Shown one piece after another: positions 205 to 34,374 of a stretch of DNA of 35,359 nt (position 1 is its first letter; each line of letters opens with the position of its first letter). The DNA comes from a virus. Under the pieces are notes generated by a model. It did no database searches, was not told the origin of the DNA, and worked only from the letters and a program-made list of their open reading frames with translations. Where the stretch lies: the UHGV virus genome UHGV-0358463; one strand, written 5' to 3'. Position numbers and translations under genes: made by a program.

Positions 205-1368
205 TTACACATCATTAGTACCTTCCTTATTTTTTGACTGGGACAAATTTGGGACCGATGGGTTCAGGATCGAGTCTATTTGCCGTGCGTGTTCGGTAAG
301 GTGATTAGGTGCAAGGTGAGCATATCGACGAACCATTTCGATAGACTCCCAGCCTCCCATTTCCTGTAACACTGACAACGGGACTCCGGCTTGAACCAGC
401 CAACTTGCCCAGGTGTGTCTCAAGTCGTGAAATCTGAAATCATCAATACCAGCCCGTCTCAGCGCCGCTTTCCAGGCTGTGTTTGCGTCATACCGCATCT
501 TCCTTACTGTTGGCGCTTTCGTTCCGTCTGGTTTGGTACAGCTTTCCTTGTACACAAATACCCAACGGTGATGATTCCCGATTTGTTTTTTCAATACGCG
601 ACATGCAGTATCATTCAGCGCAACGCCAATTGCGCGGTTTGATTTACTCTCTTCCGGGTTTATCCATGCCACCCGGCGCTGCATATCTATTTGTTGCCAT
701 TCAAGGTTGATGATGTTCGAGCGTCTTAAGCCTGTTGCCAGTGCAAATTCAACAACAGACTTTAATGGCTCCGGACATTCATCAATCAGCCTTTGTGCTT
801 CATGGGGCTCCAGCCAGCGGATCCGTTTATTCTTTGGTTGAGGCACTTTAATAATTGGTGCCTTATCCAGCATTTTCCATTCACGCTCTGCGGCTCTTAG
901 TAGGGCCTTTATAAATGAAAGATGCGTAGCCTTCGTTGCAACGGACGCTGGTTTTGGCGTGTATTCTGGAACAGGTTTCCCTTTTTTTCTGCATGCTTCT
1001 GCCCTGAGTTTCCAGTTTTCCTCATGACGCCGGTTCGTCATTTTCTGCATTGCTGAATAAATTTTTGATTCGGTAATGTCTCTTAGTTGCATTCCTGCGA
1101 AATGTTGAAGCCAGAATCCGATCCGGCTTTTGTCATCGTCCAGTGATTTTTTATGTGCTTTCTCTTCAAGCCACCTGACACACGCTTCCTCGAACGTTAT
1201 ATCAGGTATTTCACCAAGTTTGCTGACCCGCCATGCTTCAGCCTTTAGCTTGTCATGGAGTTCTGTCGCCTGCCTTTTGTCCTTTGTTCCAAGAGACTGT
1301 TTAAATCTTTTACCGTTCGGCAATGTGAAACTGGCGTACCATATTTCACCTCTGCGGAAGAGTGACAT
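205..1368 (-). CDS. int: tyrosine-type site-specific integrase (P22-like family)
   Basis: 387 aa. N-terminus [48 protein letters not shown] and C-terminal [10 protein letters not shown]...RRYAH catalytic region typical of phage tyrosine recombinases; sits next to the tRNA. Confidence 0.95.
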
Positions 1369-4169: not shown

Positions 4170-4570
4170 TTTGCTGCTCCTCATCATATCGACCCTGCAA
4201 GGCCGATTAGTTTCTCCACAAAACAGAGAAGAACACCTGCGGTGGCAGCCGCCCGGATGGATTGGGTTATGAGCCCGTCGTCCGGTGATGCTCTTCTCTG
4301 TTTTGTAAAAAGGACGGTACCAGCCGGAAGCAAGGGTACAAACTGGTACCTCCAGGACTACACACAGCATAAAGTTGTGGTGCCGGGTGCCTCCCGGTGC
4401 CTGGCGAAGGTTGCACACCAGACGGGTGGGTATCCACAGAAGGTCGACTGTCAGCCTCAACCTTAACCCGCGTGCGCTGAGCCGCATTCACCACAACGCT
4501 AAGGATTCTCTCTGGTTAAAAATACTTAGCTGTTATGTGCCTGCTTTTAGCCACATCAGGCGAGGTGGAC

Positions 4571-4623
4571 CTGGTTATTCCCCAACAACAAGGATTCGGT
4601 TAATCTGGTTATCCCCAACAACG
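4571..4623 (+). repeat. two near-identical ~19-bp direct repeats (CTGGTTATTCCCCAACAACA / CTGGTTATCCCCAACAACG) just upstream of the RBS of the 4638 gene
   Basis: Read directly: copies at 4571-4590 and 4605-4623. Confidence 0.6.
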
Positions 4624-4637
4624 CAAAAGGAAAAGAA

Positions 4638-5072
4638 ATGTCCGGTAATATCTATACGCTGTACAAATCCCACTGTGAAAATGTTGGAAAGTATCGGGGC
4701 ATTGAAATCAGTGGGGTAGTGTCATCAGTCGAAATAAGCAAAGTTGAATCAAGGGCAACATTACTTACTCTTTTGGACCTTGTCTTACATGAGCACCGGA
4801 AGAAATTCGGCACTCCCTATAATCAGTTGAATGGGAAAAAGGCTCTGGTTCACCTTATTCTGATGAAGCATCACTGGATGCCAAAACAGATTAATGAGAT
4901 GAAATTTGATGAACTTCTTCTTTCAATTCAGGATGAACTCACACTTGATAAAATAAGCGTAACCGCCCAGAAATTTTTAGATTATCGAGACTGGAGATCA
5001 CAAATTCATCACTTTGATGATTTTGACGAAAATGAATGGGATCCTAATTTGTCTGCACAATATCTAAAGTAA
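4638..5072 (+). CDS. hypothetical protein, 144 aa
   Basis: ORF with AAGGA Shine-Dalgarno; transcribed against the surrounding leftward early genes; no family recognised. Confidence 0.55.
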   Translation: MSGNIYTLYKSHCENVGKYRGIEISGVVSSVEISKVESRATLLTLLDLVLHEHRKKFGTPYNQLNGKKALVHLILMKHHWMPKQINEMKFDELLLSIQDELTLDKISVTAQKFLDYRDWRSQIHHFDDFDENEWDPNLSAQYLK

Positions 5073-5250
5073 CATCCTGTGATAAAACCGTGATTTCCTG
5101 ATCCAGTTTTTTTAAGGAGTCTATTGTTTCCTGTCGATAAGACAGCACTTCACGAAGCTGGTTTATAGCTGCCAGCTTCTTTGTCATCCACTCATAAATT
5201 TCCTCATCTGTGTAGCCAGGCGCGACGATTTTGGGTTCTGTTTTGTGCAT
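5044..5250 (-). CDS. hypothetical small protein, 68 aa
   Basis: ATG at 5250 preceded by GAGGAG (7-nt spacing); 3' end overlaps the 4638-5072 gene by 29 nt on the opposite strand. Confidence 0.5.
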   Translation of the reverse strand: MHKTEPKIVAPGYTDEEIYEWMTKKLAAINQLREVLSYRQETIDSLKKLDQEITVLSQDVTLDIVQTN

Positions 5251-5309
5251 TTCACATCTCCTCAAGTTATCAGTTACTTGTTGATGGGGACCAGATTGTT
5301 AAAGAGCTA

Positions 5310-5332
5310 AGCGTCCTGTAGGGCGCTTTTTT
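5310..5332 (+). terminator. candidate intrinsic terminator (7-bp stem with one G-U pair, then TTTTTTGTT)
   Basis: AGCGTCC-tgta-GGGCGCT followed by a T-run. Confidence 0.4.
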
Positions 5333-5498
5333 GTTGCTAACGAATCATCCTGGACTTCATATGCCCCAGGCGGCTACTTCGTGGGCGTCCTGCCTGTTCG
5401 TTTTTGACATTTACTGACTGCTTACGACACATGCACCGTGTTGCAACCAGATTTTGTTGTAATCCTGTAGTTGGTCTGGAACAAAAGATAAAATTAAA

Positions 5499-5535
5499 TT
5501 GCGAGATATGCAAGTGATGTTTGCGAAATATGCAA
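5499..5535. promoter_or_regulatory. left operator/promoter region: two 15-bp sites TTGCGAGATATGCAA (5499-5513) and TTGCGAAATATGCAA (5521-5535); candidate leftward -35 TTGCAT (5507-5512) and -10 TATCTT (5485-5490)
   Basis: Same TTGCG-N6-GCAA motif as right of the repressor gene; the -35 hexamer lies inside a site. Confidence 0.45.
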
Positions 5536-5544
5536 ATTTATAGG

Positions 5545-5569
5545 TAATAAAAAGCCACCTTTCGGTGGC
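5545..5569 (-). terminator. intrinsic terminator downstream of the repressor gene
   Basis: On the minus strand GCCACC-GAAA-GGTGGC followed by TTTTTATT. Confidence 0.55.
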
Positions 5570-5589
5570 CGATGGATGGGATATTGAGG

Positions 5590-6282
5590 TTAATTATGTC
5601 TCTTAAGGGTTTGCGACTGACTGATTAAGACCTTTCCAAAGACCATGAATCGGTGTTCGTTTTCGCTAGTAATTCCCCATTCACGGTAAATCTGGTTATC
5701 AGAAATCACCAGCAGTTTGTCAGGAATCATTTGAAGTCTTTTAACGTATATTTTGTCATCAAAACCAAAGACATATATACCATCACCATCAAACTGATTG
5801 ATGCTGACATCAACGAAGATGAGATCTCCTGGCTCAATGGTTGGACACATACTGTCCCCACGAACGTTGATAACTTTGATGTGATTGGCTGGTCGTCCGC
5901 CGAACATTGATACAGCATTATCAGTTCTGTATTCGATGGCATGAATCACATCAATGACATCACCGCCCTGGATAAGGCCATTTCCCGCACTGGCACTGAT
6001 ATCCAGCATTTCAATACGGAACACATCCTTCACCTGCGCAACATCCTCATTATTACTGTTTTTATATACAGTATTACTTTTGTGGGCAGAGGTAAAGAGA
6101 TCAGCAATATCAACACCTAAGCTCTTGGCAATATTACTCAGTGTTTGTTCGGTAAATTGTTTTTGCTTACCCGTTTCTAAGCGCGAGATGTTCGCCGCAT
6201 CTACTCCTATTGCTTCAGCGAGATCGGCGATTTTCATGTTCTTCGCTTGGCGAAGTTGTCTGACTCGGTTTCCTATGTTCAT
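5590..6282 (-). CDS. cI-type prophage repressor (N-terminal XRE HTH, C-terminal S24 LexA-like peptidase)
   Basis: 230 aa; HTH region IADLAEAIGVDAANISRLETGK; S24 signature ...VRGDSMCPTIEPGDLIFVD...YVKRL... . Confidence 0.9.
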   Translation of the reverse strand: MNIGNRVRQLRQAKNMKIADLAEAIGVDAANISRLETGKQKQFTEQTLSNIAKSLGVDIADLFTSAHKSNTVYKNSNNEDVAQVKDVFRIEMLDISASAGNGLIQGGDVIDVIHAIEYRTDNAVSMFGGRPANHIKVINVRGDSMCPTIEPGDLIFVDVSINQFDGDGIYVFGFDDKIYVKRLQMIPDKLLVISDNQIYREWGITSENEHRFMVFGKVLISQSQTLKRHN

Positions 6283-6302
6283 GCGTTTATTACATTTCTT
6301 TA

Positions 6303-6365
6303 TTGCGTGATAAGCAAATCAACTTGCGCAAAATAATTGCGTGAAATAACATGCATAACGCGCAA
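6303..6365. promoter_or_regulatory. right operator/divergent promoter region between repressor and cro-like genes: TTGCGTGATAAGCAA (6303-6317), palindrome TTGCGCAA (6324-6331), ATGCATAACGCGCAA (6351-6365)
   Basis: Repeated TTGCG/CGCAA half-sites in the 97-bp intergenic region. Confidence 0.5.
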
Positions 6366-6379
6366 TATTTGGAGGGCAT

Positions 6380-6640
6380 ATGCAATCACCATTACGAAAT
6401 GTGCGTAAGGCGCATGGTTTCACTTTGCAGCATGTTGCTGCGGGTGTTCAAGTCAATCCAGCGACGTTGAGTCGTATTGAGAGGCTGGAGCAGATTCCAT
6501 CTATCGAGCTTGCAGAACGTTTAGCCAATTTTTTTAAGGGTGAAGTCAGCGAAATGCAGATTCTTTATCCGGCACGTTTTCAATCTAGCCAAAACCAGAA
6601 TGGGTTTAAACCACAGGAACAGGAGGTGAACCGTGGGTAA
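6380..6640 (+). CDS. Cro-like HTH regulator (XRE family)
   Basis: 86 aa; HTH GFTLQHVAAGVQVNPATLSRIERLEQIPSIELAERLANFF; divergent from the repressor; GGAGGG Shine-Dalgarno. Confidence 0.8.
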   Translation: MQSPLRNVRKAHGFTLQHVAAGVQVNPATLSRIERLEQIPSIELAERLANFFKGEVSEMQILYPARFQSSQNQNGFKPQEQEVNRG

Positions 6641-7184
6641 GCATCACTGGAAAGTAGAAAAACAGCCTGAGTGGTACGTGAAAGCTGTCAGAAAAACTAT
6701 CGCAGCGTTGCCGGGGGGGTACGCTGAAGCTGCTGACTGGCTGGATGTAACAGAGAACGCATTATTTAACCGCCTTCGTGCCGATGGCGATCAGATTTTC
6801 CCGCTGGGATGGGCAATGATTTTGCAACGTGCTGGTGGAACTCACTTCATTGCTGACGCTGTGGCGCAGTCTGCAAATGGCGTCTTTGTGTCTCTTCCTG
6901 ACGTCGAGGATGTGGACAACGCCGATATTAACCAGCGCCTGCTGGAAGTCATTGAACAGATCGGCAGTTATTCAAAACAGATTCGTTCAGCAATTGAAGA
7001 CGGTGTAGTGGAACCGCATGAGAAGACAGCAATTAACGACGAGCTGTACCTCTCAATTTCGAAGCTGCAGGAGCATGCAGCACTGGTCTACAAAATTTTT
7101 TGCATTTCAGAAAGTAATGACGCCCGCGAGTGTGCAGCTCCGGGCGCCGTGGCGTGTCGTGACTGTGGAGAAACTAACGCATGA
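6633..7184 (+). CDS. CII/YdaT-like regulatory protein
   Basis: 183 aa; GTG start 6 nt after AGGAGG, overlapping the cro-like stop; third gene of an immunity module; C-terminal CxxC. Family is a tentative assignment from memory. Confidence 0.55.
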
Positions 7185-7519
7185 ACAGTTTAACAACACA
7201 CTACCGTCGCTCGCAACTGATTGCGCTTCCTGTACCGGGTGGAAAAGCGAAGGTGGAGTATTGCTATGCAGTAAATGTACCAGGTGACAGGGAAATTGTA
7301 ACCCACAGCTTTGCAGAGTGGGCTGTGGGTGATTTCAACCGGCAGAAGGAGACAGTCCTTTGCGACAAGTTAACCGCTGGTTCAAAGATCACTACGGAGT
7401 GCCCGTCAGAGTCATTCGTTGGGAGCCGGAAACACAACGGGTTATCTACCTCCGCGAAGGCTATGAGCATGAGTGCTTCAGCCCGCTCGAACAGTTTCGT
7501 CGTAAATTCAGGGAAATAG
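7181..7519 (+). CDS. hypothetical protein, 112 aa
   Basis: ATGA start/stop overlap with the preceding gene; composition only partly protein-like. Confidence 0.35.
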
Positions 7520-7528
7520 AGGTCGGTC

Positions 7529-8470
7529 ATGAGCACTAAATTAACCGGCTATGTATGGGATGGTTGCGCTGCATCAGGCATGAAATTATCCAGCGTGGCA
7601 ATTATGGCCCGCCTGGCTGATTTCAGTAATGACGAAGGTGTGTGCTGGCCATCAATTGAAACCATTGCCCGCCAGATTGGCGCGGGGATGAGTACCGTCA
7701 GAACGGCTATCGCACGGCTGGAAGCAGAAGGCTGGTTAACGCGTAAGGCGCGTCGCCAGGGTAACCGCAATGCGTCGAATGTTTATCAGCTTAACGTTGC
7801 GAAGCTTCAGGCAGCGGCATTTTCTCAACTGTCAGATTCTGACCCGTCAAAATCTGACGCATCAAAATCTGACCCGTCAAAATTTGATGCGTCGAAATCT
7901 GGCAAAAAAGCGGGTTTTCACCCGTCAGAATCTGGCGGGGATCCGTCAGTAAAATCAAAACATGATCCGTCAGATAAAAAAACTTCGTGTCCGGACGCTT
8001 CGCAACCGGACACGAAGAAGGCTGAACAGGATTTTTTAACTCGCCATCCTGATGCGGTTGTATTCAGCCCTAAAAAGCGCCAGTGGGGAACGCAGGATGA
8101 TTTGACCTGCGCACAGTGGCTCTGGAAAAAAATCATCGCTCTGTACGAGCAGGCCGCCGAATGTGACGGCGAGGTGGTTCGTCCCAAAGAACCGAACTGG
8201 ACAGCCTGGGCAAACGAAATACGCCTGATGTGTGTGCAGGATGGTCGTACTCACAAACAAATCTGCGAGATGTACAGCCGCGTCAGCCGCGATCCGTTCT
8301 GGTGCCGTAACGTGCTCAGCCCGTCGAAGTTGCGGGAAAAATGGGATGAGCTTTCCCTGCGCTTATCACCGTCTGTCAGCACGTACACCGAAAAACGCGA
8401 AGACCCGTACTTCAAATCCAGTTACGACAACGTGGACTACAGCCAGATCCCGGCAGGATTCAGGGGGTGA
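7529..8470 (+). CDS. replication initiator (lambda O-like) with iterons inside the coding sequence
   Basis: 313 aa; N-terminal winged-helix-like region; central repetitive DPSKSD/ASKSD tract encoded by the iterons. Confidence 0.8.
   Translation: MSTKLTGYVWDGCAASGMKLSSVAIMARLADFSNDEGVCWPSIETIARQIGAGMSTVRTAIARLEAEGWLTRKARRQGNRNASNVYQLNVAKLQAAAFSQLSDSDPSKSDASKSDPSKFDASKSGKKAGFHPSESGGDPSVKSKHDPSDKKTSCPDASQPDTKKAEQDFLTRHPDAVVFSPKKRQWGTQDDLTCAQWLWKKIIALYEQAAECDGEVVRPKEPNWTAWANEIRLMCVQDGRTHKQICEMYSRVSRDPFWCRNVLSPSKLREKWDELSLRLSPSVSTYTEKREDPYFKSSYDNVDYSQIPAGFRG
7830..7980. repeat. replication origin iteron array (at least 6 copies of ~15 bp CCGTCAAAATCTGAC-like units) followed by an A-rich tract
   Basis: Units at 7844, 7859, 7874, 7889, 7922 and 7965, then AAAAAAA at 7975-7981. 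Confidence 0.6.
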
Positions 8471-8961
8471 TCATGAGTCTTTTGAATGAAGTTCAGAAAT
8501 TCATTGAAGCCCATCCGGGATGTACTTCCGGAGACATTGCGGATGCTTTTGCAGGTTACTCACGGCAGCGCGTTCTGCAGTCAGCAAGCAAGTTACGTCA
8601 GAGTGGGCGTGTGGCTCACCGTTGTGAAGGAGATACACGCAGACATTTCCCGCGCCTGACTGAGAGAGCGCAGGAACCGGAACCACAACCAGTTCGAGAA
8701 ACCAGACCTGTGCGCAATTTCTATGTCGGCACTAACGATCCACGGGTGATTTTGTGCCTGACCCGCCAGGCTGAAGAACTGGAGTCCAGGGGCTTATACC
8801 GTCGTGCTGCAACCGTGTGGATGGCGGCATTCCGTGAAAGCCACTCCCAGCCAGAACGAAACAATTTTCTGGCGCGTCGTGAGCGGTGCTTACGGAAAAG
8901 CAGCAAGCGCGCTGCATCGGGTGAAGAGTGGTATCTGTCAGGGAATTACGTGGGGGCTTAA
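8467..8961 (+). CDS. PerC-family-like transcriptional regulator with N-terminal winged-helix extension
   Basis: 164 aa; C-terminal EELESRGLYRRAATVWMAAFRESHSQPERNNFLARRERCL resembles the PerC/Pch signature (recalled, not searched). Confidence 0.55.
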   Translation: MIMSLLNEVQKFIEAHPGCTSGDIADAFAGYSRQRVLQSASKLRQSGRVAHRCEGDTRRHFPRLTERAQEPEPQPVRETRPVRNFYVGTNDPRVILCLTRQAEELESRGLYRRAATVWMAAFRESHSQPERNNFLARRERCLRKSSKRAASGEEWYLSGNYVGA

Positions 8962-9614
8962 TGAGTAATAAATATTGCCAGGCGCTGGTGGAACTACGGA
9001 ACAAACCAGCCCATGAACTGAAGGAAGTGGGCGATCAGTGGCGCACGCCGGACAACATTTTCTGGGGAATTAACACCCTGTTTGGCCCGTTTGTTCTGGA
9101 TCTGTTTACTGACGGTGATAACGCCAAATGTGCCGCGTATTACACGGCGGAAGATAACGCGCTGGCGCATGACTGGTCAGAACGTCTTGCGGAGCTTAAA
9201 GGTGCTGCCTTTGGTAATCCCCCATACAGCCGCGCCAGTCAGCATGAGGGGCAATACATCACCGGCATGCGTTACATCATGAAACATGCCAGTGCCATGC
9301 GTGATAAGGGCGGGCGCTATGTTTTCCTGATCAAAGCTGCCACCAGCGAAGTGTGGTGGCCGGAAGATGCGGACCATATTGCTTTTATTCGCGGGCGTAT
9401 TGGTTTTGAACTGCCTGCCTGGTTTATCCCGAAGGATGAGAAGCAGGTGCCGACAGGCGCTTTCTTCGCTGGTGCTATTGCTGTTTTCGACAAGACCTGG
9501 AAGGGACCGGCAATCAGCTACATCGGGCGCGATGAACTTGAGGCATGTGGTGAAGCCTTTCTGGTGCAGGTTCGCCAGCAGGCGGAAAAACTGGTCAGGG
9601 AGATGGCGGCATGA
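8961..9614 (+). CDS. phage DNA N6-adenine methyltransferase (Dam-like, DPPY-type)
   Basis: 217 aa from the ATG at 8961 (TAATG overlap); catalytic motif FGNPPYS. Confidence 0.8.
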   Translation: MSNKYCQALVELRNKPAHELKEVGDQWRTPDNIFWGINTLFGPFVLDLFTDGDNAKCAAYYTAEDNALAHDWSERLAELKGAAFGNPPYSRASQHEGQYITGMRYIMKHASAMRDKGGRYVFLIKAATSEVWWPEDADHIAFIRGRIGFELPAWFIPKDEKQVPTGAFFAGAIAVFDKTWKGPAISYIGRDELEACGEAFLVQVRQQAEKLVREMAA

Positions 9615-9937
9615 CGACGTTAACTCAATGCCAGCAGCAGGTGCTGGATATGCTGATTTCTTACCAGAAAGAGCGTGGCTTTCCGCCAACCAATCAGGAG
9701 GTGGCAACCATGCTGGGATACCGTTCAGTGAATGCAGCGGTAGAGCATCTTCGTGCACTGGAGAAAAAAGGCGTCATCACGATAAAGCGTGGCGTGGCCC
9801 GGGGGATAACGCTTCATACCGCGGTGAAGGACGACGACAGCGAGGCGGTCGGGATTATCCGCGCACTGCTTGCCGGTGAGGAAAACGCCAGGCTGCGTGC
9901 AGCCCACTGGTTACATGAGAGAGGCCTGAAAGTATGA
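9611..9937 (+). CDS. LexA-like DNA-binding-domain protein lacking the S24 peptidase domain
   Basis: 108 aa; QQQVLDMLISYQKERGFPPTNQEVATMLGYRSVNAAVEHLRALEKKGVITI parallels the LexA N-terminal winged helix. Confidence 0.7.
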   Translation: MTTLTQCQQQVLDMLISYQKERGFPPTNQEVATMLGYRSVNAAVEHLRALEKKGVITIKRGVARGITLHTAVKDDDSEAVGIIRALLAGEENARLRAAHWLHERGLKV

Positions 9938-10323
9938 AGCTGATCTTGCCTTTCCCGCCCAGCGTGAACACGTACTGGCGACACCCCAACAAAGGGGCGT
10001 TTGTAGGTAAAAGCCTGATAAGCGAGGCGGGGCGAAAATTCCAGAGCGCGGCGTGCGCAGCAATAGTTGAGCAGTTACGTCGTCTGCCGAAACCAACGTC
10101 GGCACCTGCTTCAGTGGAGATCGTGTTGTTTCCTCCGGATAACCGGATCCGCGATCTGGACAACTATAACAAGGCGCTGTTTGACGCCCTGACCCACGCG
10201 GGGGTGTGGGAAGACGACAGCCAGGTGAAAAGAATGCTGGTGGAGTGGGGGCCGGTTATCCCGGAAGGGAAGGTCGAGATCACTATCAGTAAGTACGAGA
10301 AAACGGCGGGTGCAGCCGCCTGA
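9934..10323 (+). CDS. rusA: RusA-family Holliday junction resolvase
   Basis: 129 aa; MKLILPFPPSVNTYWRH...IRDLDNYNKALFDALTHAGVWEDDSQV is characteristic of RusA. Confidence 0.85.
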   Translation: MKLILPFPPSVNTYWRHPNKGAFVGKSLISEAGRKFQSAACAAIVEQLRRLPKPTSAPASVEIVLFPPDNRIRDLDNYNKALFDALTHAGVWEDDSQVKRMLVEWGPVIPEGKVEITISKYEKTAGAAA

Positions 10324-10342
10324 TTAAGAGGAGAAACGAAGT

Positions 10343-11140
10343 ATGAATAATCTGATGGTCATTGATGGTATTGAAGTTCGTCGTGATGCTTATGGGCGTT
10401 ACAGCCTGAACGATCTGCACAGGGCTGCCGGTTCTCAGGATAAGCATAAGCCTGCATTCTGGCTCCGCAATGAGCAAACCGAACGTTTAATAAGCGAGTT
10501 GCAGATTTGCAACTCGGTCAATATAGAGCCAGTTAACGTTAGTCGTGGCGGAAATAACCAGGGGACGTATGTCTGCAAAGAACTGGTGTATGCCTATGCA
10601 ATGTGGATCAGCCCGTCATTCCATCTGAAGGTGATCCGTACTTTCGATATGGTAACCAGCGCACCGGAAAAATTATCCGGGCAGGCTGCTGACAAGATGC
10701 AGGCTGGCGTGATTCTGCTGGACTTTATGCGCCGGGAGTTAAACCTGTCTAACTCATCTGTGCTTGGGGCCTGTCAGAAACTCCAGGAGGCTGTTGGCTT
10801 ACCGAATCTGGCACCACGCTATGCCATTGATGCTCCTGCTGACGCGCCTGATGGCTCAAGTCGCCCGACACTGTCACTGAGTGCACTGCTGAAACAGTAT
10901 GGTATCTGCCTGACGGCTAATCAGGCATATCACCAGATGGCGAAGCTGGGGATCGTGGAACAACGCGAACGATACAGCCGTACCGCGATTAACAACATCA
11001 AAAAATTCTGGTCGCTGACAGCGAAAGGCTGCATGTTCGGCAAGAACATCACCAGTCCCGCAAATCCGCGCGAGACGCAGCCGCATTTCTTCGAATCCCG
11101 ATTCCCTGAGCTGTTAAAGCTGCTCGATACCGTTCATTGA
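10343..11140 (+). CDS. KilA-N domain protein (antirepressor-like)
   Basis: 265 aa; N-terminal MNNLMVIDGIEVRRDAYGRYSLNDLHRAAG...PAFWLRNEQT matches the KilA-N fold signature. Confidence 0.7.
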   Translation: MNNLMVIDGIEVRRDAYGRYSLNDLHRAAGSQDKHKPAFWLRNEQTERLISELQICNSVNIEPVNVSRGGNNQGTYVCKELVYAYAMWISPSFHLKVIRTFDMVTSAPEKLSGQAADKMQAGVILLDFMRRELNLSNSSVLGACQKLQEAVGLPNLAPRYAIDAPADAPDGSSRPTLSLSALLKQYGICLTANQAYHQMAKLGIVEQRERYSRTAINNIKKFWSLTAKGCMFGKNITSPANPRETQPHFFESRFPELLKLLDTVH

Positions 11141-11141
11141 G

Positions 11142-12137
11142 GTGACCGTGAGAGCACTACTGACTCCTGAAATAGCCCCGCGTATGGGGATCGTATTGTT
11201 CAGACCCGGTTCAGAGCTGATGCCCCTGTTTATGCAGGGGCGTGTCCTGCTGGAGCCTGAGCCGGAACGTTATTCATCTTTCGCCAGTGGTGCCGTTCCC
11301 GCGGCATCACAACCGCTGGCGGATGATCCTGCCGTTCGGGCCGTGTTCTGCAATGAGGCAGTGATCCGTCGTACTGGTGGCGTGGAATGTCTTGAAAGCT
11401 GGTTACTTCGTGAAAAGGGCTGTCAGTGGCCTCATTCCGACTGGCACAGCGAGAACATGACCACAATGCGACACGCGCCGGGCGCGATCCGTCTGTGCTG
11501 GCACTGCGATAACCAGCTGCGCGATCAGTTCACGGAACGGTTGGAATCAATGGCAACGGATAACTGTGCCCGCTGGGTGTTGTCTGTTGTGCGTCGGGAT
11601 CTCGGTTTTGATGACAGTCACGTTGTGACAATGCCGGAACTGTGCTGGTGGCTGATTCGTAATGACCTGGCGGATGCCTTACCGGAAAGTGCAGCCCGTA
11701 AGGCACTGAGATTACCGAAGCCTGTTGTGCCGTCTGTCACCCGGGAAAGTGACCTTTTTCCTTCGGTTCCTGCCACCAGCATTATCCAGGATAAAGCGAA
11801 ACAGGTGCTGGCGCTGAAAGTGGATCCAGAGTCGCCGGAGTCTTTTATGTTACGCCCAAAACGTCGCCGCTGGGTTAATGAAAAGTACACGCGCTGGGTT
11901 AAGACACAGCCGTGTGCATGTTGTGGAAAGCCTGCTGATGATCCCCACCACCTGATAGGTCACGGTCAGGGTGGAATGGGTACAAAAGCGCATGACCTCT
12001 TTGTGTTGCCTTTGTGCAGAAAGCATCACGACGAGCTGCATGCGGATACCGTGGCATTTGAAGAGATGTATGGCTCCCAGTTGGAACTGATATTTCGTTT
12101 TATTGATCGTGCGCTGGCAATTGGCGTGCTGGCCTGA
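11142..12137 (+). CDS. DUF968-like phage protein with Cys/His-rich C-terminus
   Basis: 331 aa; GTG start at 11142 (alternative ATG downstream); C-terminal CACCGKPADDPHHLIGHGQGG...CRKHHDELH suggests a zinc-binding, HNH-like motif. Confidence 0.6.
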   Translation: MTVRALLTPEIAPRMGIVLFRPGSELMPLFMQGRVLLEPEPERYSSFASGAVPAASQPLADDPAVRAVFCNEAVIRRTGGVECLESWLLREKGCQWPHSDWHSENMTTMRHAPGAIRLCWHCDNQLRDQFTERLESMATDNCARWVLSVVRRDLGFDDSHVVTMPELCWWLIRNDLADALPESAARKALRLPKPVVPSVTRESDLFPSVPATSIIQDKAKQVLALKVDPESPESFMLRPKRRRWVNEKYTRWVKTQPCACCGKPADDPHHLIGHGQGGMGTKAHDLFVLPLCRKHHDELHADTVAFEEMYGSQLELIFRFIDRALAIGVLA

Positions 12138-12154
12138 TTTGGTGGAGAAAGTTG

Positions 12155-12502
12155 ATGCGTGATATGTATGAAGTATTGGACCGCTGGGGAGCATGGGCTG
12201 CAGCAGAAAATAGTGGTGTGGACTGGCAGCCGATAGCGGCTGGTTTCAAGGGACTTTTACCACACGGTAAAAAGTCACGTCTCCAGTGTGATGATGATGA
12301 AGGCATCATGATAGATAGTTGTGTGGCTAGGTTGCGTAAATATAAGCCGGAAGAGTATGAGCTGATAATTGCTCACTTTGTTATCGGTATCTCATTACGC
12401 ACTATTGCGAAGAAGAGAAAATGCTCTGATGGGACTATAAGAAAAAAGTTGCAAGCTGCATTGGGATTTATTGATGCAGTTATATATATAATACATGGGT
12501 AA
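12155..12502 (+). CDS. late-gene antiterminator Q (phage-82 Q family)
   Basis: 115 aa from the ATG at 12155 (GGAG Shine-Dalgarno); MRDMYEVLDRWGAWAA...DGTIRKKLQAALGFIDAV resembles phage-82-type Q proteins. Confidence 0.75.
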   Translation: MRDMYEVLDRWGAWAAAENSGVDWQPIAAGFKGLLPHGKKSRLQCDDDEGIMIDSCVARLRKYKPEEYELIIAHFVIGISLRTIAKKRKCSDGTIRKKLQAALGFIDAVIYIIHG

Positions 12503-12509
12503 TTTATTA

Positions 12510-12528
12510 GACGGCCATATTGGCCGTC
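12510..12528. terminator. perfect 8-bp hairpin (GACGGCCA-tat-TGGCCGTC) between convergent Q and cassette genes; possible bidirectional terminator
   Basis: Palindrome read directly; flanked by AT-rich sequence on both sides but no clean T-tract. Confidence 0.3.
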
Positions 12529-13705
12529 AGCTAAATAAATATGTAATAGCATAAGGCGTAAGTAAAAAGTAGAACCTAAATGTAAGATATAAGCCACATA
12601 AAACTATAATTCCTAATGAGGCAAAAACAACTTTCTGAACAAGCAATCTTGTGGTTAAACTATCAAATGTATCCTTTATATCTTCGTAAATAGCCTTGAA
12701 GTTATATTCTGCTTGTTGTTTTTTATGATTTAACTCATCATTTATTGCTGTTAAAGTTTGCCATTGATTAAATAGAACAAATAGAATCATAATAGTGAAG
12801 AACAATGCACCCAACACTACAGCTGTATTTATTAATGCTTGACTATCCCAACCATTAGCCTGCTTCATTTGAGTCGCAACGATAATTGTTGCGACGGGGA
12901 TACCTAATATCTGATTTTGTATGTCACTGAATACTTTATGTATTTTTCCCATCTCTTCTATTTTGGCTACTCGTAACTGATCCAGTATTTTCTCGTAAGA
13001 AAAACCAGAAACGAATACTTTGTATCCTTTTTGATAACTTTCATAAAGTTGTCCTAAATCCCTTAACATGAAGGAAAAAGAGGTTTCTTTAGTTTTAGAT
13101 TCACATGATGATTTTATGCTACTTGCTAAAATAGTAAGTTTTTGATCTTTATGCGTATCTTCTGCAAAGTTTGCGATCAAATTATGAATCAGATCTCCAT
13201 TAACATTCATAAGATCATCGCTAGAATAATTTACTGGAATTTTTAGTACGTTGGATTCGACGAATACCAATTCAAAATTTGTTTCATCTAAATAAGCAGA
13301 ACAATCTTTGAATAAAGTAATTAAGCTCAAAACATCTCTGTACTTGGATATAATAGCAGGCGACTTTTTATCCCTGTTGTGATAATTAAGTTCGATTATA
13401 AAGAAGTTACTGGCTTCCTTTATCCTATTTTTAGGATTTTTTAAATACTCATTAAAAGAGAAATGTAGCTGCCCCAATCGTAATTTGGGGGGGGTTATAT
13501 GTAAGGTTATAGTTTGGCCTAACTCAATGTTGCCAGATTCAAGGGTGATGCCAAAATCATGGGGATTCTCTGTGATATCGTTGATGATGTTACAGAGCTC
13601 CTCGTTTGAAAGAATGAGTGATGCTTCAGATAGGGTACCTGCAAATGTAGCGGCCTTGTAAATAGTCACTAAGTCTTTGAAGGTTCTCTGATTGTTACTG
13701 CTCAT
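12527..13705 (-). CDS. cassette gene B: protein with a large soluble N-terminal domain and two C-terminal hydrophobic helices
   Basis: 392 aa from the ATG at 13705 (ORF track gives 13714, a GTG); hydrophobic segments ALINTAVVLGALFFTIMILFVLF and KVVFASLGIIVLCGLYLTFRFYFLL; overlaps gene A by 11 nt. Confidence 0.7.
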   Translation of the reverse strand: MSSNNQRTFKDLVTIYKAATFAGTLSEASLILSNEELCNIINDITENPHDFGITLESGNIELGQTITLHITPPKLRLGQLHFSFNEYLKNPKNRIKEASNFFIIELNYHNRDKKSPAIISKYRDVLSLITLFKDCSAYLDETNFELVFVESNVLKIPVNYSSDDLMNVNGDLIHNLIANFAEDTHKDQKLTILASSIKSSCESKTKETSFSFMLRDLGQLYESYQKGYKVFVSGFSYEKILDQLRVAKIEEMGKIHKVFSDIQNQILGIPVATIIVATQMKQANGWDSQALINTAVVLGALFFTIMILFVLFNQWQTLTAINDELNHKKQQAEYNFKAIYEDIKDTFDSLTTRLLVQKVVFASLGIIVLCGLYLTFRFYFLLTPYAITYLFS

Positions 13706-14729
13706 CCTCTTCACCTAATTCTGATAAAATCTCTGATCTTAGCGTATCCGGAATCTCGGTAAGTATCAATTTATCGTTTTCTGAATCATAAAGAACGCTG
13801 CCATCATGCAAGGCCGCACGCTCGAATTTCAGAGACCAATGTTTGGACTTTCCTTTGAAACTAACAAGCCCACGTATAACGTTGCCATCAGGCACGAACC
13901 CATCAGAGAACTCCAGATCGTCATTGGTTAACTTTTCAACTAACAACTCAGGAGCAGTTGGCCATATCTCGTTTGCAAAAACTTGAGTGTCGAAAGCTTC
14001 ACCAGAACGATTTAAATTTTTTAATTTTTCATGAGCCTTATTTAGGAACTCTTCACGTGCCTCTGGTTCAAAACCTCTTTCAGTAGCAAATTCTAAAAGT
14101 GCATTCCGTAATTTTGTTGTTTCTTGTTTGGCAATTAGAATATCGTTGCAACCTAAAAACTTTTTGAAATAACCTGCTACTGAATTTTGCCCCTTTAGAA
14201 AGCTAATATATCTCTCTTTGCCATTCTGGCGCCCAGTTAAGTCAATTCGTCCCGCTACTCGAAGTTTAGCAATGTCTAGATATTCACTTTCTTGAATTTC
14301 AAAATCGTGGACTGAAGAGCCAACTGCTGATGTTAGGATTGCAACCATCAAATAATGATTTCCATTTACCTCATTATGGGCAATTATTACATAACCACCA
14401 GTAGACATTGATTCATCATCGGCTCTGGCTTTTAAATGATTGATCATTCGGATACTAGTATCATAAAAACTATGTGTTTTATTTACGAAATAATCATCAA
14501 CGATATTACCCATAGGGTAACTATCGCGGTCATCTTCAAATTTACCATATCCTTTACCTGCTCTCCCAGAGTACCTTTCAGTAAGTGCGTTAGAGAGGTC
14601 TTTTGATGCTTGCTGAACAGGTTTTTCTGAAGGACAAGGAATAATGGTGGCTAACCCCTGTTGTTCCTTGTTCATAATGTGAACAATAAACTTATGAGTG
14701 ATATTAGTGGGGGTCGCTGATGCAGTCAT
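13695..14729 (-). CDS. cassette gene A: NdpA/YejK-like nucleoid-associated-protein family homologue
   Basis: 344 aa; AAGGA Shine-Dalgarno at 14738-14742. Collinear matches to E. coli YejK recalled from memory: GGYVIIAH..YLMVAILTS, YLDIAKLRVAGRIDLTG, RYISFLKGQ, VAGYFKKFLGC, LILTEIPDTLRSEI. Confidence 0.75.
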   Translation of the reverse strand: MTASATPTNITHKFIVHIMNKEQQGLATIIPCPSEKPVQQASKDLSNALTERYSGRAGKGYGKFEDDRDSYPMGNIVDDYFVNKTHSFYDTSIRMINHLKARADDESMSTGGYVIIAHNEVNGNHYLMVAILTSAVGSSVHDFEIQESEYLDIAKLRVAGRIDLTGRQNGKERYISFLKGQNSVAGYFKKFLGCNDILIAKQETTKLRNALLEFATERGFEPEAREEFLNKAHEKLKNLNRSGEAFDTQVFANEIWPTAPELLVEKLTNDDLEFSDGFVPDGNVIRGLVSFKGKSKHWSLKFERAALHDGSVLYDSENDKLILTEIPDTLRSEILSELGEEDEQ

Positions 14730-14845
14730 AACAACATCCTTTTAATGGTTTTGAACAATTGGTGTTGATAATACTTCAAAAAATACTAATGCGTACGCAA
14801 AAAATACAGTACTCTGTTAAGAGTGGTTACTTCGCCACACAGCTT

Positions 14846-14876
14846 AAACCCGCCGTCGAGCGGGTTTTGTCGTTTC
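14846..14876 (+). terminator. intrinsic terminator upstream of the lysis genes (candidate tR-prime-like site for Q antitermination)
   Basis: AAACCCGC-cgtcga-GCGGGTTT followed by TTTTGTCGTTT. Confidence 0.5.
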
Positions 14877-15019
14877 TGGGCTTTGGTATTCGTTGGGCTT
14901 GGTCTATCTAGCTCTTATCCATTGGCTCGGCTTCTTTTACGTTTCCGCTTCTGATTTGCGGTTCGTGGTACTCCCTCAATTTGCACCTCTTGTATCGGCG
15001 AGGTGAGAGATAACTACAA

Positions 15020-15346
15020 ATGCCTCATAACCCAAATACCTGGCTGGAGTTGGTCCAGAGCTGGTGGCGTGGAGACACACCGCTGGGCGCAGTGATTATG
15101 TCGATTGTTATGGCTGGTTTGCGCATTGCCTATTTTGGCGGTGGTGGTGGCTGGAAGCGAAAAACACTCGAAATTCTACTCTGTGGCGCTCTGACGCTGA
15201 CTTTTGCATCCGCTCTTGAGTATGTCGGATGGCCTAAATCGCTTTCTGTTGCCATTGGTGGTGGGGTGGGGCTGATCGGTGTCGATGCTATTCGTGGGGC
15301 TGCAATGAGAGTAATCGGTAATAAGTTTGGTGGCTCTAAGGAGTAA
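15020..15346 (+). CDS. putative holin
   Basis: 108 aa, first gene of the lysis cassette; hydrophobic segments GAVIMSIVMAGLRIAYFGG, LEILLCGALTLTFASALEYVGW, SLSVAIGGGVGLIGV. Confidence 0.6.
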   Translation: MPHNPNTWLELVQSWWRGDTPLGAVIMSIVMAGLRIAYFGGGGGWKRKTLEILLCGALTLTFASALEYVGWPKSLSVAIGGGVGLIGVDAIRGAAMRVIGNKFGGSKE

Positions 15347-33329: not shown

Positions 33330-34374
33330 ATTTCAGCGCCCGACGCTGGCAGAAAATATCAGTATGCTCCGTAACGATTTATTCGCCAGGCTGGACGTCA
33401 GCGACACGCTCCGGCGCATGGATGAAGACGTGCGGGCAAAGGTGTATGCGGCGGCGCTGCATACGGTCTACGGGTACATCGATTATCTGGCAATGAATAT
33501 GCTGCCTGACCTGTGCGATGAGTCCTGGCTGGCGCGACATGCTGCGATGAAACGGTGTCCGCGCAAGGGGGCCACGGCTGCCAGCGGGTATATGCGCTGG
33601 GAAGGTGTCAGCGATGGCCTGAAGGTGACTGCCGGGAGCGTGATTCAGCGCGATGACCTGGTTCAGTACACGGCAACTGCCGATGCAACCAGCTCCGGTG
33701 GTGTCCTGCGTGTGCCGATCACTTGCTCAACTACAGGCGCGGTCGGTAACGCTGACGACGGTACGGCATTAATCCTGGTCACGCCGGTGAATGGTCTGCC
33801 GTCTTCCGGTGTTGCAGATACCCTGACTGGCGGATTCGATACTGAAGATCTGGAAACGTGGCGCGCCCGCGTCATTGAGCGGTATTACTGGACGCCGCAG
33901 GGCGGGGCTGACGGGGACTATGTCGTCTGGGCTAAAGAAGTGCCCGGCATTACCCGCGCATGGACATACCGTCACTGGATGGGAACGGGAACTGTCGGTG
34001 TGATGATTGCCAGCAGTGACCTGATTAATCCCATTCCGGAAGAATCAACGGAAACGGCGGCAAGACAACATATCGGGCCACTGGCCCCGGTGGCAGGCTC
34101 TGACTTGTATGTGTTCAGGCCGGTGGCACATACGGTGGATTTTCATATCCGCGTGACGCCGGATACACCGGAAATACGGGCTGCCATCACCGCGGAGTTG
34201 CGTTCGTTCCTGCTGCGTGATGGTTATCCGCAGGGAGAACTGAAGGTGTCGCGTATCAGTGAGGCGATTTCCGGTGCGAACGGGGAATACAGCCATCAGT
34301 TGCTTGCACCGGCAGACAATATCTCCATTGCGAAAAATGAACTGGCGGTTCTGGGGACGATTTCATGGACGTGA
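33316..34374 (+). CDS. baseplate J-like protein (Mu gp47-like)
   Basis: 352 aa; conserved order. Confidence 0.8.

Follow-up and report, generated by a model that had tools for sequence, protein, structure and literature searches.

Genomic context of the LexA-like gene

The window, by which we mean the whole 35,359-nucleotide stretch of viral DNA that was analysed, is a lambdoid prophage from E. coli or Shigella that resembles SfII and SfV. Its early-right operon carries, between dam and rusA, a gene for a small stand-alone protein of the LexA DNA-binding type (the LexA-like ORF). The genes and sites referred to below are as follows.

205-1368, minus strand: int
5590-6282, minus strand: cI repressor gene (HTH_3 and Peptidase_S24 domains; SfII annotation)
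6054-6073, no strand assigned: strong, near-perfect SOS box TACTGTTTTTATATACAGTA inside cI, in the part that encodes the HTH-S24 interdomain linker
6380-12502, plus strand: early-right operon with the LexA-like ORF (cro, CP76/cII-like, O with ori iterons, PerC-like, dam, LexA-like, rusA, KilA-N, DUF968/HNH, Q)
6380-6640, plus strand: cro
between cro and O, plus strand: CP76/cII-like gene
7529-8470, plus strand: O, with the probable ori iterons
8467-8961, plus strand: PerC-like gene
8961-9614, plus strand: dam, phage Dam N6-adenine methyltransferase (Pfam PF05869, E=9.7e-46), upstream of the LexA-like ORF
9611-9937, plus strand: 108-aa stand-alone LexA-type DNA-binding protein ORF (LexA N-terminal domain and short C-terminal hairpin, without the S24 domain)
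9934-10323, plus strand: rusA, RusA Holliday-junction resolvase (Pfam PF05866), downstream of the LexA-like ORF
10343-11140, plus strand: KilA-N gene
11142-12137, plus strand: DUF968/HNH gene
12152-12502, plus strand: Q

Past Q lie a leftward moron and then the lysis and morphogenesis genes. Between Q and the holin gene, at 12527-14729 on the minus strand, is a leftward two-gene insert, one ORF of which (395 aa) had no Pfam or PADLOC match while the other (344 aa) is a homologue of NA37, a YejK-like nucleoid-associated protein (E=1.5e-68); the cargo at this position differs in related phages, being OmpD, a methylase or Stx. Within O, clustered inverted and direct repeats at 7831-7893 (GTCAGATTCTGAC / GTCAAAATCTGAC / GACGCATCAAAATCTGAC and others), which encode a repetitive SDxSKSD peptide, probably serve the replication module as ori iterons.

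The LexA-like ORF is intact, running on the plus strand from the ATG at 9611 to the TGA at 9935-9937, and its product is MTTLTQCQQQVLDMLISYQKERGFPPTNQEVATMLGYRSVNAAVEHLRALEKKGVITIKRGVARGITLHTAVKDDDSEAVGIIRALLAGEENARLRAAHWLHERGLKV (108 aa). It cannot extend further 5' because this ATG is the first start codon past the upstream stop. Both of its ends overlap the neighbouring genes as ATGA, with the dam stop overlapping the ATG of the ORF and the stop of the ORF overlapping the ATG of rusA. These overlapping start and stop codons, together with the position in the early-right (pR) operon, suggest that translation is coupled to that of dam and rusA and that the protein would be made only after loss of the repressor or upon infection. 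A promoter or operator of its own adjoining the ORF was considered and rejected, since both junctions overlap as ATGA and a consensus scan detected no promoter-like site directly upstream.

Domain membership and predicted fold

A preliminary description of this DNA, made from the letters alone, had proposed that the 108-aa product is a LexA N-terminal winged helix that lacks the S24 autocleavage domain, and database searches bear out both parts of the proposal. The Pfam family LexA_DNA_bind (PF01726) matched over the entire profile (positions 1-65 of 65; E=2.9e-19; 69 bits, the cut-off being 23.7), PHROG 362 ('transcriptional repressor') matched over the full length (E=1.6e-59), and a phmmer search of the PDB aligned residues 2-70 with residues 2-70 of the E. 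coli LexA N-terminal domain (1lea, E=6.5e-16). The LexA equivalog model TIGR00498 matched through its N-terminal part only (positions 1-91 of 203), with a score of 70.5 that lies under the cut-off of 110.95. No match to the S24 peptidase family PF00717 was found in the ORF with Pfam, the protein finishes at residue 108 and rusA follows directly; as rusA starts 4 nt before the stop codon, a C-terminal domain concealed in another frame can be dismissed. The product belongs to the LexA_DNA_bind domain family and to PHROG 362, but not to the LexA repressors proper (TIGR00498; MEROPS S24), whose defining S24 serine-lysine peptidase/dimerisation domain it lacks.

An AlphaFold2 model, built from a 15-sequence family alignment (pLDDT 82.6), shows a winged helix over residues 1-68, with helices at 6-22, 28-35 and 40-52 and strands at 56-58 and 66-68. 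As modelled, the protein has the three helices and beta-hairpin wing of a winged helix-turn-helix (wHTH) fold. Alignment and structure prediction against LexA had been proposed as a check, and the outcome agrees with the proposal: Foldseek superposed the model on DNA-bound LexA (3jso) with an rmsd of 0.9 Å over 68 residues at 50% identity, and all of its top 12 matches were LexA chains. The parts of the protein discussed below are listed here with the evidence that defines them.

9611-9817, plus strand: winged helix-turn-helix, residues 1-69 (AlphaFold2 secondary structure; Foldseek to 3jso; dN/dS)
9728-9766, plus strand: recognition helix, residues 40-52, VNAAVEHLRALEK (alignment; contact positions from PMC3091678)
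9830-9919, plus strand: C-terminal helical hairpin, residues 74-103 (AlphaFold2 model; conservation in relatives)
9866-9880, plus strand: LLAGE, residues 86-90 (HMMER alignment of ALLAGE opposite LexA RVAAGE with its Ala84-Gly85 autocleavage site)

Recognition helix and DNA-contact residues

The recognition region had been described as near-identical to that of LexA. This holds for residues 45-56 (EHLRALEKKGVI versus EHLKALARKGVI at LexA 45-56; 9/12 identical), with the nuance that the first Glu of the LexA 'EEHL' (Glu44) is replaced by Val. In LexA, helix 3 contacts DNA through Ser39, Asn41, Ala42, Glu44 and Glu45 (PMC3091678), and four of these five (Ser39, Asn41, Ala42 and Glu45) are retained in the LexA-like ORF. 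His46, Lys53 and the invariant wing residues Arg64-Gly65-Ile66 are likewise shared with E. coli LexA (PDB 1lea, 1jhh, 3jso), whereas the Val at position 44 and the extra basic wing residues Lys59 and Arg60 set the two proteins apart.

Position 44 was non-acidic (V, A, T, F, Y or L) in all 12 of the hairpin-subfamily members sampled in the alignment. Within the E. coli clade the helix is invariant, reading RSVNAAVEHL in 68 of 70 IMG/VR carrier loci, and among Enterobacteriaceae relatives positions 42-45 differ (NSAVEH in Salmonella, NTIAGH in Citrobacter). The Citrobacter relative has four successive changes (NAAVEH to NTIAGH) between conserved flanks, a pattern that looks like a change of specificity. 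To our knowledge, the SOS box is identical across these enterobacterial hosts. A serious possibility is a regulator with shifted specificity that would bind a private non-SOS operator, in the phage or in the host, and repress or activate particular genes during lytic growth. Both the subfamily-wide replacement of Glu44 and the clustering of changes at positions 42-45 between conserved flanks speak for such a regulator, and gp6 of phage GIL01, to which we return below, provides a precedent.

The C-terminal hairpin and the hinge

Residues 70-108 (~38 residues) form a family-conserved extra module that was absent from the preliminary description. AlphaFold2 predicts two helices (residues 74-87 and 93-103) after a low-confidence linker (residues 69-75). 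This hairpin is kept in relatives that are 40-53% identical, with Ala97 and Leu101 invariant, and may be a dimerisation module.

Homology to LexA extends beyond the Pfam domain into the hinge (residues 2-90 versus LexA 2-86; phmmer and TIGR00498), so that LLA88-G89-E stands opposite VAA84-G85-E of LexA, the cleavage-site motif. The aligned stretch lies between the predicted helices 74-87 and 93-103, and the LexA-like protein has no catalytic domain. Judged from the alignment, LLAGE looks like a vestige of the LexA hinge.

Some relatives of 140-350 aa in the representative library (P0133, P0134, P0148, P0151, P0152, P0157, P0161, P0164 and P0168) contain two LexA-NTD-like stretches each, in tandem, and are possibly covalent pseudo-dimers of the winged helix.

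Distribution and selection

Of 5426 complete E. coli genomes, 2233 (~41%) carry the LexA-like gene, mostly at 95-100% nucleotide identity and in up to four copies each. It is annotated there as 'LexA family transcriptional regulator', an annotation in thousands of genomes that the preliminary description had missed. It was also found in 51 phage records, including SfII, SfIV, SfV (as orf42, 'unknown'), mEp460, cdtI and Stx2a and Stx2c phages. The occurrence of the gene is already recorded in annotation, and its product belongs to a known kind, the phage-encoded truncated LexA homologues; it is distinguished by the conserved C-terminal hairpin, by an apparent remnant of the cleavage-site motif and by the status of its gene as an optional cassette in lambdoid phages. 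We found no functional study of the enterobacterial protein in the literature, and PADLOC, which could have indicated a link with anti-phage defence, returned nothing beyond a weak generic wHTH match.

A profile search run exhaustively over 1.84 billion representatives yielded 4602 matches at E<=1e-3. These relatives include proteins of ~105-165 aa that are 40-53% identical and align through residue ~105, which makes the C-terminal hairpin a feature of the family. The module PerC-(Dam)-LexA-like-RusA-KilA-N-DUF968-Q recurs in prophages of Salmonella salamae (87% amino acid identity) and Citrobacter (67%), and phage mEp390 (47%) has the order replication gene-LexA-like-RusA-DUF968-Q. In the Klebsiella phage ST846-OXA48phi9.1 (1-3994), the 40% identical homologue lies in the order DinI-hyp-LexA-like-hyp-DUF968-Q, with the DinI homologue two genes upstream.

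Comparison with the Salmonella homologue gave a dN/dS of 0.031 for the wHTH (at a dS of 0.61) and of 0.25 for the C-terminus, with dS at 0.6-0.8 across both parts. These values point to strong purifying selection on the wHTH and to a selected gene. A non-functional remnant of a captured lexA might be suspected from the shortness of the protein relative to LexA and from its dispensability in some phages. The low dN/dS of both parts, the conservation of the full-length family down to 40% identity, and the intact frame with overlapping dam and rusA junctions in 2233 E. coli genomes make such a remnant extremely unlikely, and a pseudogene was rejected on dN/dS.

The gene was missing from 10 of 80 IMG/VR loci in which RusA is at least 98% identical. 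One of these, the contig L061 (9318-10390), has an early operon otherwise near-identical to positions 8961-10323 of the window, but in it dam runs directly into rusA with overlapping stop and start codons and no trace of the LexA-like gene is left. The LexA-like gene is an optional, dispensable cassette of 324 bp without non-coding DNA of its own.

This distribution also bears on the suggestion that the protein is no transcription factor and instead acts as an accessory of DNA metabolism alongside RusA, Dam and DUF968/HNH, for instance in the targeting or protection of DNA structures. The gene sits in a nin-like region rich in DNA-processing genes, directly upstream of rusA with overlapping codons, and this place is kept from E. 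coli to mEp390 at 47% identity. The Klebsiella homologue, however, has no adjoining rusA, the L061 contig has rusA and dam without the gene, and conservation is centred on the sequence-reading helix and the wing, as would be expected of a site-specific binder. We regard a role of this kind as improbable.

Search for DNA targets

One strong SOS box was found in the whole window, the TACTGTTTTTATATACAGTA site inside cI, and its exact pattern occurred in none of 100 shuffles. A relaxed search that allowed one mismatch returned 21 matches in the window against 11.5 expected; all except one of these lie within coding regions, and their scores with a position weight matrix (PWM) were poor. The PWM, derived from SOS boxes of E. 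coli, served for ranking only, and the exact-pattern searches are independent of it.

Full flanks of at least 6.5 kb to either side of the gene are available for 47 carrier loci; a strong SOS box was found in 24 of these and, within 10 kb, in none of the other 23. The boxes are either internal to cI or belong to a second recurrent type (TACTGTAAAAATAAACAGTG or a variant), which is located between Q and holin, downstream of Q, at the very start of orf48, an N6_N4 methylase gene (at 34170 in SfV, 13490 in Ayreon, 16751 in L008 and 11904 in L015); the methylase gene is missing from the window. In the Klebsiella phage ST846-OXA48phi9.1 (L006), a strong SOS box (TACTGTTTTTTTGTACAGTA) lies upstream of two leftward genes between Q and holin. 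Four non-carriers have a box-bearing cI, and ST64B and a Klebsiella phage likewise have the cI box without the LexA-like gene. Strict co-occurrence of gene and SOS box was observed in neither direction over 80 IMG/VR loci and about 12 phage records. The presence of 23 carriers without a box and of non-carriers with one indicates that the gene has no obligate partner in cis.

The lack of linkage between gene and SOS boxes over the 80 loci is a further point for a private operator. Such an operator was nevertheless sought without success: no repeated palindromic operator was detected in the 35-kb window when all 5+5 dyads with spacers of 0-12 were compared with shuffles, the inverted repeats within 4400-15100 are ori iterons, cI operators and hairpins, and at the rusA/KilA-N junction no palindrome or other DNA co-varies with the different recognition helix of the Citrobacter phage. 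Neither did the dyad and inverted-repeat searches yield, in the window, a candidate for a gp6-type site, that is, a phage palindrome at the -35 of a late promoter, and late transcription is already supplied by Q. Moreover, mosaic recombination would readily part an optional 324-bp cassette without non-coding DNA from an operator borne by the phage. For a cassette that moves between mosaic phages in this way, a target that is present in every host is more economical, and a LexA-derived helix would be expected to find it in the SOS boxes; the point is one of economy and no evidence in itself.

One further pattern, TGTC-N4-CGTACA, occurs in three exact copies (8374, 24079 and 26809, all on the plus strand) within unrelated coding regions and flanks. 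About 0.07 exact matches were estimated by chance for this pattern, which was picked post hoc and whose one-mismatch count is not significant, and the copies are probably due to chance.

An SOS box within the cI repressor gene

In about five cI lineages (window/SfII, mEp460, ST64B, two Klebsiella phages and phage Eeyore were compared), with nucleotide identity as low as 68%, the CTG-N10-CAG core of the cI box is kept. The same codons are always used (ACT GTA ... xxC AGT), and the box encodes an invariant Thr-Val-x-x-x-Ser island in a surrounding linker that is hypervariable and indel-bearing. Fixed codons and an invariant island within a hypervariable linker argue for selection on the DNA, and this conservation suggests that the box is a functional LexA operator within the repressor gene. 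It is possibly a cis target of host LexA, of the LexA-like protein or of both, and might serve as a roadblock or as an SOS-controlled internal or antisense promoter. We found no description of an SOS box within cI, and this site may be the more interesting object of the neighbourhood.

On the cI-sense strand (6068-6096, minus strand), TTTACC (6096-6091) and TACTGT (6073-6068), separated by a 17-nt spacer, look like a weak -35/-10 pair. The TACTGT -10 candidate coincides with the left arm of the SOS box, and the consensus promoter scan reported no promoter at the box. Further along in cI, a GTG (6033-6031) preceded at 10 nt by an internal GAGGA could start an HTH-less C-terminal fragment. Both observations are matches of pattern only.

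Discussion

The LexA-like ORF encodes an N-terminal winged helix that resembles that of E. coli LexA closely in sequence and fold and continues into the hinge. The two proteins differ in that the phage protein has no S24 domain, and hence no Ser119/Lys156 pair and no RecA*-stimulated autocleavage, in that a two-helix hairpin replaces the C-terminal domain, and in that the gene is phage-encoded and lies in an early lytic operon. Our preferred reading, held tentatively and short of being probable, is that the protein is a non-cleavable, RecA-insensitive LexA surrogate which dimerises through its hairpin and occupies SOS-type operators during lytic growth. It may have originated from a proteobacterial LexA that was shortened just past the cleavage-site region, the remnant of the hinge being remodelled into a short helical hairpin that would take the place of the LexA C-terminal domain as the source of dimerisation. 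The dimer would recognise CTGT-type palindromes, either SOS boxes or close variants, and, being uncleavable, the protein could re-occupy SOS-controlled promoters while host LexA is being destroyed in lytic growth. Candidate promoters are those of host genes, of LexA-controlled functions of co-resident prophages or colicin plasmids, and those at the phages' own SOS boxes.

The preliminary description had likewise suggested that an uncleavable protein of this kind could occupy SOS boxes and alter prophage induction or host SOS responses, a proposal on which the observations point both ways. The case for a LexA surrogate draws on comparisons of sequence and modelled structure (about 50% identity to the LexA N-terminal domain, the predicted fold, the contact residues and wing RGI, and the homology in the hinge) and on genomic context (a portable cassette without operator DNA, the DinI neighbour in Klebsiella and SOS boxes in 24 of 47 loci). 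Against it are the replacement of Glu44 by Val, the variable positions 42-45, the 23 of 47 carriers without a box and the gp6 precedent. A regulator with shifted specificity is nearly as likely as the LexA surrogate. A more far-reaching form of the surrogate reading, in which an uncleavable mimic both re-silences SOS promoters and binds the cI-internal operator, so blocking resynthesis of the repressor and acting as a widespread phage brake on the SOS response, appears unlikely to us. Were it true, error-prone polymerases, SulA, colicin lysis genes and the LexA-controlled antirepressors of rival prophages would be shut down.

The LexA piece that is found in the ORF is about the same as that in the N-terminal autocleavage fragment of LexA (residues 1-84) and in LexA-DBD fusions. 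The isolated LexA N-terminal domain binds operators weakly, and good repression needs an added dimerisation module; the natural N-terminal fragment is a short-lived degradation intermediate that is removed by ClpXP. Unlike that fragment, the phage protein is a genetically encoded, selected product with a C-terminus of its own. The fragment and LexA-DBD bacterial two-hybrid fusions are reportedly treated in work by Kim & Little from 1992, Dmitrova et al. from 1998 and Neher et al. from 2003.

The closest precedent, and the only characterised truncated-LexA homologue of a phage, is gp6 of GIL01, a tectivirus of Bacillus thuringiensis. Truncated relative to LexA, gp6 is 44% identical to the N-terminal domain of the host LexA and activates the late promoter P3 by binding GaCACA..TGTGaC, a palindrome that overlaps the -35 and differs from that of host LexA (PMC6182141). 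Set beside the LexA-like ORF on its published description, gp6 is shorter, consists of the wHTH only and has its origin in a Gram-positive LexA, whereas the enterobacterial protein has the C-terminal hairpin and is encoded by an optional cassette of a Q-antiterminated lambdoid phage. DinI homologues, PsiB and GIL01 gp7 are likewise encoded by mobile elements and tune the host SOS response, as the LexA-like protein may do, but these act on the RecA or LexA protein and not through DNA binding.

[quoted passage not shown] If, instead, SOS boxes are bound, the SOS response would be reshaped during induction by a gene that very many prophages carry. As the carriers include Stx2-converting, Shigella serotype-converting and cdt phages, binding of SOS boxes could then alter mutagenesis, filamentation, colicin release, competition among Shiga-toxin phages and antibiotic-triggered induction.
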